Below are positions 12,001 through 15,000 of a DNA stretch of 56,014 nt, piece after piece (within the stretch, counting starts at the first letter, position 1; every line of letters begins with the position of its first letter). This DNA is from a virus (taxonomy: Duplodnaviria > Caudoviricetes): positions 1 through 56,014 of IMG/VR virus record IMGVR_UViG_3300030102_005174; one strand, given 5' to 3'. The position numbers are program-made.

Positions 12001-15000
12001 CACCGGAAAGCAGAACTAAAGATTTAAAAGAAAAAGAATTAGGGTTGGAAGCAAAAGAATTTTTAGCAAGGCGATTACAAGAGGGCGTTGGTAGAAATTT
12101 AAAAGTAAGAACTGAAAAAGATGGTAAATACGGTAGAATGTTGGGTTGGTTTATTATTGGTGAAACAAATTTAAACGAAGAAATGGTTCACAGAGGTTAT
12201 GCTTGGCTTTATGACGGTGGTACTAAAGAAAAAGATTTACAAGAATTAAAGGATAAAAGGGGCATAAAATGACAGTTGACCCTTTTTTATTTTGGAATGT
12301 TTTACTAACTTTAGTTATAGCGCCAGCAATTTTTGTATTTAGAGCGTTACAATCTGAGGTAAAGAGAATCGATATACTTTTGAATAAAACAAGAGAAGAT
12401 TACGCAAAAAGAGATGACGTAACACAAGCAATTAATAGGTTAGAAGAAAAGATAGATAGAATTTTAGAAAAACTTAAATAGGTGTTTTATGGCTACAAAG
12501 AAAAAACCAATACCAACAAACAAAGCATTATATGCAAGAGTTAAGGCTGAAACAAAACGCAAATTTAAGGTTTATCCAAGCGCTTATGCAAACGCATATT
12601 TAGTGCGTACTTACAAGAAGCGTGGTGGCAAATATAGGATGGGCTAATGAGTTTAAAAACATGGTTTAAACAAGGCTGGGTTGATATTGGCGCACCTAAG
12701 AAAAACGGTAAGTTTCAGCCATGTGGCAGAGCAACCGGCAGTAAAAGAAAATACCCTAAATGTGTACCGTTGGCTACTGCAAACAGAATGACACCATCAC
12801 AAATTAAAAGTGCAGTAAGAAGAAAAAGAGCAAAGGCACAGGGCGTTGGTGGAAAACCTACAAATGTAAAAACTTTTGCTAGAAAGAAGAGAAAGAAATG
12901 ATTACAGCATATGGGGAAACATTTAGAGGTTATAACAAACCTAAAAGAACGCCACGCCACAAAACTAAAAGCCACGCTGTTTTGGCAAAAGTGGGTAATA
13001 AAGTTAAATTAATACGCTTTGGGCAACAAGGCGTAAAAGGTGCTGGTAAAAATCCAACTAGCAAAAGGGATAAAGCAAGAAAGCGTTCTTATTATGCTCG
13101 CCATAATGCTCAAGACCCCAACCCAAGCAAAATGTCTGCAAGATATTGGTCTCATAAAGTTAAATGGTAGAGCAAACAATAAGTGATGTAGAAAACCTAA
13201 CCAAAACAATTAATTTTGGTGAAGGTGGAAGTGATGTTGAAGCCGGCATACAGTTTATATATCATATGCGTGAACATTTAGTTGATATTGGCATAGCAAC
13301 CGTTTATGGTTTGGCAGTATATGCTTTATTTTTATGGATAACAAAAAAAATAAAGGGTTAACTATGAGGGGTATGTTTGATGGGTGTCATTTTATATCCC
13401 TCACCATTTTGGGGGGTGTCTGTTTTATTTAACACTTAATCTTTGATTATTGTTATTTACAATGTAATAAAATTTTTGCAGATTGATCCCCCCACCAAAA
13501 GGAGTTTATATGTTAGGTTCTCTTATATCACCAATAGCATCTCTTGCCGGCACATGGTTGCAAGGTAGGGTTGATAAAGCTAAAGCTGAAACAGAAGTTA
13601 AAGTAGCAAAAGCCAAAGCCGAAGCGAAAGTTTACGAGACCGAGGCTACCTCTAGTTTTCTTAATGAGCAAGCGCTTACAAATCAAATGGGTGAAAGCTG
13701 GAAAGATGAATTTTGGTCAATAATTTTTGGGGCAATATTAATAGCTTCATTTTTGCCATTTTCACAACCGTATGTAAAAGAGGGTTTTATATTTTTAGAA
13801 GAATCGACCCCTCATTGGTTTTCAAATATGTTATATATTATTATTGGAAGTAGCTTTGGTTATAGGTTTGGCAAACAAGGTTTACAAATGATAAACAAAA
13901 GAAAGAAATAAAAAAACTTGTATAACAAACAAAAACAATTTACTTTGCGAATTAACGGAGTCTTTTCCAACTTCGTTGGGTTTAAGTTGTAGCGTGGCTC
14001 TGTTATTTCCTTTCTTGAGCCACGCTTTTTTTATTTTAATTACCAACCGGTTAAGGCACTAGAAACATCGCAAAAATGTAATCCACCGGCAAAACATTCA
14101 TTTTCTAATGCTGGTCTTCCAAATACTTGATTTGTATATTTATAAATTACAGATGGTGGAGCGCCCACGCCATTATGTTTTAGCATAATATTTGGTACAC
14201 CGGCTTTAATTTGCCTAGCAACAGAATTATGATATTTGTAAATATCAGCATCTTCAGCATAACCATTTAACACTCTAGCAAGTGCGCCAAGTTCAAAAGC
14301 ATTATCACTTACCCTTACACAAATACTGTCTAAAGGGCTTCTTTTGTCATAATCATCGTAGCAATATTCCGGTGTTAAATAATACCAATGTAAAGATGCA
14401 CTTGGATAACCCTCTTTCTTTTTTTCCGGATGCCATTTTACTCTAAATGCTTTAAACATTTTTTAACCCCCCCAATGTTCTTGCCAAGTTAATTCTATTG
14501 CATTTTCATAATTTCTTTCATCAAAACTATTTATTACAATACCTTTGGCTTTAAGTTTCTTATAAATATTATGTTTAAATTCAACTAAACACTCACTTGT
14601 TTCACAAGTGTTTTGAAGCCCATCAAGGGCATAGATATTATCTAAATGCCCCATAAGTTCTGTTTTAACTGCTCCCATTACTGCGCCCCCATTTCTTTCC
14701 AAGTCATACGTTGTCTTACCAACAACTTACCCTCATCGATACGTTCTAATATAAATTCAATATCAACAATTTCTTTTGATAATTTTGCAATTTTAATATC
14801 ACACTCTTGAGCCCAAGATTTGTCTTTAATTAAATCTTTTAAATCTAAAACTTTAAAAATGTGGTCTTCTAAAACTTGTTGTTTTTTTTGCAATTCATCA
14901 ATTTTTTCAAATTTAATAACTGCGTTTGGTTTTAAATATTTTTTTAAATTTTGTGTAAAATTTTCCATTTTTTACTCCGTTGGGTTTAATTTATAATATT

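Follow-up and report, generated by a model that had tools for sequence, protein, structure and literature searches.

The virus record IMGVR_UViG_3300030102_005174 of IMG/VR, analysed here over its full 56,014 nucleotides (the window), carries in a 128-nt gap between two converging operons, one late and on the + strand, the other early and on the - strand, a short element that can plausibly be read as a functional + strand antisense RNA. We put this reading at somewhat below even odds, roughly 0.45. As proposed, an RNA of ~80 nt (13954-14033) would exist at a minimum as the 3' terminus of the late structural and lysis transcript and may also come from a sigma-70-type promoter of its own. The loop and 3' arm of its first hairpin, together with the linker that follows (13963-13990), are an inverted copy of the translation initiation region (TIR) of the early gene designated 14968. 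On the leader, Shine-Dalgarno (SD) sequence and start codon of 14968, the RNA is predicted to form a 16-nt duplex with one G:U pair and then a further 7 nt across a 6-nt bulge; on the 5' end and SD of gene 24972, it would form ten perfect pairs and then nine pairs with one G:U. In either case the 30S subunit would be kept from binding, and the translation of these early genes would fall once late transcription is high. The pyrimidine-rich loop of the terminator may add weaker contacts at the GAAAGGAAA-type SDs of 23757, 41352 and 24972.

Read along the + strand, the unit presents in succession an A-tract, TTGTAT, 17 bases, TACTTT, a first hairpin, a linker, a GC hairpin and U7, an order that supports its description as a putative small RNA (sRNA) gene. 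Hairpin 1 (13952-13979) has a 10-bp stem (13952-13961 with 13970-13979) that includes three G:U pairs and encloses the loop CUUUUCCA. The left arm reads AACGGAGT, which genes 14968 and 40440 use as their SD motif and which is present in three copies in the window against 0.59 expected; the right arm complements it. An earlier first-pass annotation of this DNA had drawn a 9-bp hairpin with a 10-nt loop, which is the same helix minus one U:A pair; every sequence feature that it noted was confirmed at the positions it gave. The single-stranded linker GUUUAAGUUGU (13980-13990), joined to GG at 13978-13979, is the complement of AACUUAAACC. Hairpin 2 (13991-14033) combines a 10-bp stem (13991-14000 with 14017-14026; nine G/C-containing pairs and one A:U) with the 16-nt loop UGUUAUUUCCUUUCUU and a run of seven T residues (14026-14032), read as U7 here and as U8-U9 in relatives; on the + strand it thereby has the GC stem and U-tract of a predicted intrinsic terminator. 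A large loop is unusual for a terminator: this one, at 16 nt, falls outside the short range (3-8 nt) taken to characterize intrinsic terminators, and hairpin 2 is missing from the output of our terminator scan, which allows loops of 3-8. On the - strand the hairpin is followed by UACAACUU, with no U-tract, so that termination is expected to work one way only.

The structure of the element favours the + strand. The + strand folds with an energy of -27.6 kcal/mol (z = -4.1), which none of 200 shuffles equalled. Hairpin 1 has a stability of -8.8 to -10.9 kcal/mol on the + strand and of -4.3 to -5.7 kcal/mol on the - strand in three of four sequences; its three G:U pairs become A.C mismatches on the - strand, whose minimum free energy (MFE) fold lacks the hairpin altogether. 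The relative L083, introduced below, replaces U:G by C:G and G:U by A:U in this stem and keeps + strand pairing. No match to any of 4227 Rfam families was found in the whole window at gathering thresholds, and the best weak match in 13850-14100 reached 20.3 bits against a cut-off of 70.

The proposed function depends on complementarity to early-gene initiation regions. Positions 13970-13985 (ACTTCGTTGGGTTTAA) and 14974-14989 (ACTCCGTTGGGTTTAA) differ by one base. The duplex of a + strand RNA with the 14968 leader would accordingly extend over 16 nt and include one G:U pair, and the first-pass annotation had this duplex over the SD exactly right. UUUUCCA at 13963-13969 complements UGGAAAA at the 14968 start codon, as had also been claimed, and the same opening, ATGGAAAA, is shared by genes 14968, 19307, 24972, 40023 and 54785, among them the two further genes (24972 and 40023) that the annotation had named. 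The first predicted target (14961-14995, - strand; duplex energy -32.2 kcal/mol) thus takes in the leader, SD and start codon of 14968, the first gene of the adjacent converging early operon, whose promoter and operator lie at 15002-15031. The second (24944-24979, + strand; -33.2 kcal/mol) comprises the 5' end (AACUUAAACC), SD (GGAAAGGAC) and start codon of gene 24972. Neither target overlaps 13954-14033, so the RNA would not be a cis-encoded antisense RNA for its best targets; overlap would arise only with the predicted read-through of the 14968 operon.

We scored the 41-mer 13954-13994 by duplex energy against TIRs spanning -35 to +20. With 82 TIRs, the initial ranking was 24972 (-33.2 kcal/mol), 14968 (-32.2), '22687' (-26.0) and 19307 (-23.7). 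Located within the 3' end of a DUF932 gene, with a promoter overlapping it, the start site '22687' does not mark a genuine gene and was dropped, which weakened the rank-3 statistic from 6 to 42 of 688 natural windows. Against the remaining 81 TIRs, the best energy of the candidate was reached by 3 of 688 natural 41-mers, 1 of 497 dinucleotide shuffles and 3 of 344 41-mers from the other 22 intergenic gaps; the second-best by 1/688, 0/497 and 0/344; and the third-best by 42/688, 29/497 and 25/344. Two targets, 24972 and 14968, are therefore exceptional relative to the controls, while the others are individually not. The comparison with shuffled sequence that the first-pass annotation had set as a check is accordingly passed for these two genes, their second-best energy being matched by no shuffle. 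Its larger claim, a multi-target sRNA directed at the early genes, survives in part: complementarity to 14968 and 24972 exceeds the controls and there is a lean towards early TIRs, but a broad regulon does not emerge from the third target on.

That lean is measurable. The mean energy of early TIRs minus that of late TIRs is -2.8 kcal/mol, a difference attained by none of the controls (0/688, 0/497 and 0/344 in the three sets); without the top two targets it is -1.65, attained by 2/688, 18/497 and 10/344. When the full 80-nt RNA is cofolded and pays the cost of opening its own structure, the net energies are -21.8 kcal/mol for 14968, -18.7 for 24972, -13.4 for 18396, -13.3 for 19307 and -12.9 for 40440, the terminator staying intact in each; all five of these top targets are early genes. 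By plain local alignment the signal is marginal, the best match (19/22, at the 14968 leader) having a score that 3 of 40 shuffles equal.

The terminator loop and the linker provide further likenesses to early leaders, both of which the first-pass annotation had pointed out. GAAAGGAAA occurs only five times on both strands of the window: three times at SDs (those of 24972, 41352 and 23757), once at 27537 and once in the complement of the terminator loop. The loop accordingly offers a perfect 9-10-nt complement to the SD sites of 23757, 41352 and 24972, and only 655 of 111,686 16-mers have a perfect complement of at least 9 nt to at least three TIRs. The leader motif AACTTAAA, to which the linker corresponds, is carried by the 18396, 24218, 24972 and 40440 leaders and also lies upstream of 23757 and 40023.

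Relatives of the phage bear on both the element and its targets. One metagenome scan yielded three contigs (L082-L084) that are 93-96% identical, and a scan of a genome collection yielded a 57,737-bp contig, G006:C3, that is L084-like at the locus of the element and colinear with the window at 88-95% identity (L113-L115); over the region of the element, the relatives all fall within 92-96% identity. The genome bin that holds G006:C3 is labelled as an uncultured Flavobacteriales bacterium. The TTGACA-17-TATAAT promoters and strong SDs of the phage look untypical for Bacteroidota, so this bin assignment may be an artefact. A search through 401 genomes of the order around G006 gave a true match to G006 alone; a further 39 hits are stretches of 22-69 nt that we took as chance. 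In IMG/VR no relatives were recovered through the 139-aa, 96-aa or exonuclease proteins or through an exact 19-mer, and a terminator-stem pattern found one match, unrelated and high in G+C.

Counted over the window and the three metagenome contigs, none of the 64 sites of the element body (13963-14026) varies, compared with 10 of the 51 sites just upstream (13912-13962), 8 of 93 third codon positions of the neighbouring holin-like gene and 25 of 127 in the 139-aa gene on the other side. By our own arithmetic, the probability of 0/64 at the third-position rate of the holin-like gene is ~0.003. The boundary between variable and invariant sequence coincides with the predicted transcription start at about A13954. 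Of the upstream changes, three lie in the promoter spacer, three between the -10 and the hairpin, two in the hexamers (TTGTAT to TTGTAA, TACTTT to TATTTT), one in the stem (G:U to A:U) and one in the loop. Among relatives this close, the invariance is suggestive but short of decisive. The seed is invariant in four relatives, as is the linker in the relatives compared, and the target leaders are conserved in G006:C3, where the promoter and leader of 24972 are 100% identical over 97 nt. The 14968-type leader is retained in L084 and G006:C3 despite a different first gene behind it: a TTG-start gene of ~200 nt is inserted there between the conserved promoter-leader (14969-14990) and the 96-aa gene, which makes the leader a module boundary in a mosaic genome. 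At 14033-14075, all relatives have other sequence in place of the 3' end of the 139-aa gene and the bases past the U-tract (a 20-nt indel plus substitutions), and this recombination breakpoint abuts the terminator.

The candidate promoter (13912-13946, + strand) consists of an A-tract at 13912-13916, a -35 hexamer TTGTAT at 13918-13923, a 17-nt spacer and a -10 hexamer TACTTT at 13941-13946, just as the first-pass annotation had located the two hexamers. It agrees with the sigma-70 consensus at four of six -35 positions and three of six -10 positions; with its A-tract, the -35 resembles the promoters of the phage itself. Under a weight matrix trained on nine of those promoters and including the A-tract, the site ranks 12 of ~112,000 positions and fourth among sites outside the training set. 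L083 has TTGTAA-17-TATTTT, so the 17-nt spacing is kept. A look-up of RNA runs for positions 9500-19000 came back empty. Firing from this site can only be suggested, but with or without it, transcription of the late operon must extend through the element to the terminator. Inspection by eye ruled out a - strand promoter at TACAAC, which has no -35 and the wrong motif-to-hexamer spacing.

A number of results weigh against a functional antisense RNA. The TIR set was curated by hand from the output of a crude open reading frame (ORF) caller, and from the third target onward the energies are ordinary (roughly the 6% level). Hairpin 1 ties up part of the pairing segment, and no compensatory change on both sides of this hairpin occurs in the relatives compared. 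The promoter is absent from the listing of a sigma-70 consensus scan, its -10 is weak, and its rank in the weight matrix hinges on the A-tract, without which it falls outside the top 40. Seven of the ten upstream variable sites are private to L083 and an eighth is shared, clustered as after a recombination patch; given this clustering and the closeness of the relatives, the invariance of the body may partly reflect recent shared ancestry. Neither the RNA body nor its targets vary, and no covariation between them is seen. A terminator is required between converging operons in any case. As to origin, the - strand of 13963-13992 agrees with the 14968 TIR at 26 of 29 aligned positions, with one 6-nt gap where the spacer between SD and AUG is missing, and it also holds AACTTAAACC; by this comparison, an early leader in inverted copy makes up the + strand element.

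This last likeness is the starting point of the chief competing explanation, a credible if somewhat doubtful one, in which the region is a plain 3' untranslated region (3'UTR) whose one or two terminator hairpins derive from an inverted early promoter-leader left by recombination at a module boundary, and which regulates nothing, its complementarity to early TIRs being a by-product of that origin. The mosaicism falls exactly at such boundaries, as L084 and G006:C3 show with their different first genes behind the same leader; the bases just past the U-tract are replaced in relatives; and the DNA downstream of the holin-like gene recurs in 0 of the 80 loci examined as the best of 256 homologues of that gene. 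Our scan flags hairpin 1 plus GUUUAAGUUG as terminator-like, and the local alignment score is within reach of shuffled sequence, as noted above. Yet the copy is not decaying, being free of variation at all 64 sites, 44 of which lie outside what a terminator stem needs, next to 51 nt that hold 10 variable sites. A 3'UTR of this kind would also leave aside the second, separate anti-SD module in the unusually large terminator loop, and the wobble pairs that favour + strand RNA structure. The first-pass annotation had foreseen that a decayed inverted leader might account for the region; the inverted copy is there, but the decay is not. Because inverted duplication of a target is also a route by which antisense RNAs originate, the copy itself does not decide between a functional RNA and a relic.

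Alternatively, and improbably in our view, it is the - strand that functions, carrying in the 3' read-through of the 14968 operon the AACUUAAAC-plus-hairpin motif of early transcripts, which might, for example, direct RNA processing, bind a protein or serve as a boxA/boxB-like antitermination signal. AACTTAAA is present in 20 copies against 11.7 expected, a number that none of 100 shuffles reached; eight of the 20 lie in the intergenic 5.3% of the genome (binomial 4e-6), and all eight are sense to early operons. In the early promoters of 18396, 24218, 24972 and 40440, the AACTTAAACC motif stands 6-10 nt downstream of the -10 hexamer, those of 14968 and 24046 having the variant AATTAAA, and from this spacing the leader motif would sit at the predicted 5' end of early transcripts. 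Within G006:C3, AACTTAAAC stays intact amid substitutions in the 18396 leader, and the 23757 copy changes from AACTTAAAAT to AACTTAAACC, so that in both leaders the motif outlasts the changes around it. Two copies precede hairpins with GNRA loops at the 23757 and 40023 SDs, another precedes a - strand terminator at 39412, and since hairpin 2 has no U-tract on the - strand, read-through of it is likely. Opposed to this are the mismatches that hairpin 1 suffers on the - strand in three of the four sequences and its absence from the - strand MFE fold; L083 interrupts and L084 shifts a 36-codon - strand frame, neither SD-like stretch is followed by a start codon, and the promoter-like site and U-tract are left unexplained.

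In the sense of the local operon, AACTTAAA(C) is found at 18418-18425, 24190-24197, 24944-24951, 40465-40472, 23795-23802, 40060-40067 and 39412-39419. Ahead of the 23757 and 40023 SDs it directly precedes GC hairpins with GAAA or GCAA (GNRA) loops, a layout that recalls boxA/boxB nut sites.

A DNA-level site (such as a recombination hot spot or a palindrome bound by a protein) is very hard to sustain, and so is a type I toxin-antitoxin-like pair in which the - strand frame 13970-13860 would be combined with an antisense RNA: hairpin 1 is indeed a near-palindrome at a module junction and the 36-codon frame has a hydrophobic tail, but no operator-like repeat was seen in the region, no integrase or tRNA gene in the proteins and sequence searched, codon 12 of the frame is a stop in L083, both L083 and L084 carry a frameshift in it, and its TTG start directly abuts the SD-like GAAG. 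With that stop and those frameshifts the small - strand ORF was rejected as a conserved hydrophobic ORF, as was an attachment site, there being no tRNA gene and no integrase family among the proteins scanned.

Beyond a functional antisense RNA as such, one may envisage a lytic marine siphovirus with a modular RNA at the end of its late operon, in which two anti-TIR modules silence an early regulon marked by the AACUUAAAC leader. The first module would be the inverted early leader, SD and start codon, and the second the loop directed at the GAAAGGAAA SDs of three early genes; the RNA would accumulate as late transcription rises, and the resulting timing switch, based on RNA and not on protein, would have been born from a duplication of its target. 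In this full form the proposal is unlikely.

The genomic setting is that of a siphovirus, as judged from family searches of the window proteins. The record is complete, at 56,014 bp and 33.6% G+C. From 41454 to the last base of the record, the + strand carries scaffold, major head, adaptor and tail-fibre genes; those for minor tail, chaperone, tape measure, distal tail, central fibre and endolysin, also on the + strand, come next in the late order, and the late + strand genes at the start of the record span 165 to 13911. The 57.7-kb relative G006:C3 is colinear across both window ends and joins them, which indicates a single long + strand late operon in a permuted genome. The last gene of that operon (13510-13911, + strand) has phrog_2524 as its only family match; we call it holin-like because a lysozyme-like frame comes next in many of the 80 related loci, and its product is possibly a holin. 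Five long contigs among the best 80 holin-like loci had neither the operator nor the exonuclease. In the 148-nt gap upstream of this gene there is a terminator-like hairpin with a T-rich tail (13394-13419), so the gene and the candidate element may form a separate short transcription unit.

Facing it on the - strand, from 18396 to 14040, are genes for a YqaJ-type exonuclease, an SSB and a helix-turn-helix protein and small genes without a family. The last three (14968 to 14040) stand under a promoter of their own with the palindrome TAGTGCCATTGGCACTA in its spacer, and the final one (14040-14459, - strand; 139 aa, no family) has its stop codon 7 nt from the T-run of the terminator. No Pfam or PHROG function was found for the 96-, 71- and 139-aa proteins, ESM Atlas gave nothing usable, and PHROGs places gene 24972 in a family of unknown function only. 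No integrase family matched among the phage proteins scanned, no lysogeny module was found and no tRNA genes were found in the sequence searched; the phage is apparently lytic and marine.

Several features elsewhere in the window touch on its control regions. At least six promoters, the one heading the capsid and tail operon among them, have the palindrome TAGTGCCA-N-TGGCACTA in their 17-nt spacer (15006-15022, 22595-22611, 24091-24107, 40485-40501, 41452-41468 and 41513-41529, with a partial copy at 18468-18484); it has 13 strand matches against 1.1 expected. A scan for the operator pattern returned 25 loci, approximately the number expected by chance on our estimate, with a few promoter-like contexts and no close relative; the palindrome also stands in a promoter-like context (TTGCAA..TATAAT) in the IMG/VR contigs L086/L087, L091/L093, L095/L100/L108 and L106, which are of very different G+C. 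A bidirectional terminator (39385-39430) separates the head-morphogenesis operon from a - strand early operon, with the hairpin GGGGCUAAACGCCCC and U-rich tracts on both strands, the + strand tract being UUUAAGUUU. Inside the 3' end of the DUF932 gene, 22650-22700 (- strand) resembles the 14968 TIR and first codons (..ACAACCCAATGAATGGAAAGTTTTACA); this likeness would be either chance or the fossil of another module boundary.

Phage sRNAs acting on the phage's own genes are known from a few temperate model phages (sar, OOP, c4), and a full-text literature search on pelagiphage small RNA turned up none described for phages of marine AT-rich bacteria. Bacterial sRNAs derived from 3'UTRs, such as CpxQ, SroC and DapZ, share the terminator of the upstream operon, can arise by processing or from an internal promoter and carry their seed upstream of the Rho-independent terminator; they are chromosomal, Hfq-dependent and enterobacterial. 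The candidate is like them in the shared terminator of the upstream operon and in the position of its predicted seed. The sar, OOP and aQ RNAs each have a single target, the gene that they overlap on the opposite strand, whereas the two best targets of the candidate are ~1 kb and 11 kb away and would pair with it by way of a duplicated sequence. We consider c4 the closest known system in logic: it acts in trans on a ribosome-binding site, as the candidate would. It uses two separate pairing segments, is processed from the operon of its own target and serves immunity in a temperate phage; the present element, known from sequence alone, is located at the 3' end of a late structural operon that converges on the main target operon, and would reach at least two targets through a duplicated leader, with a possible second module in the terminator loop.

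The passages of a 2025 review that concern phage antisense RNAs present sar, OOP, aQ, c4 and those of PAK_P4 as phage RNAs controlling phage genes (PMC12197685). As described there, c4 of P1/P7 (77 nt, acting on the ant mRNA) is alike in its trans action on the phage's own transcripts, in placing short segments over the ribosome-binding site and in blocking translation, and P22 sar and lambda OOP and aQ are alike as short RNAs of 68-77 nt that limit the translation or stability of an early regulator mRNA (PMC12197685). The same passages cover antisense transcripts of virulent Pseudomonas phages, for example PAK_P4as15, for which repression of the endolysin gene is proposed; these resemble the present case as RNA-level timing control in a lytic phage but are ~550 nt long, overlap their target and were found by RNA-seq (PMC12197685). 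The element described here is short, would act in trans and is predicted only from sequence.

If an antisense RNA of this kind is indeed made and represses its targets, the shut-off of early genes would be coupled to late transcription by an RNA located where the late operon ends. Such regulators could then arise by inverted duplication of the ribosome-binding region of their target, and a shared leader motif would define a regulon that is addressable by RNA.

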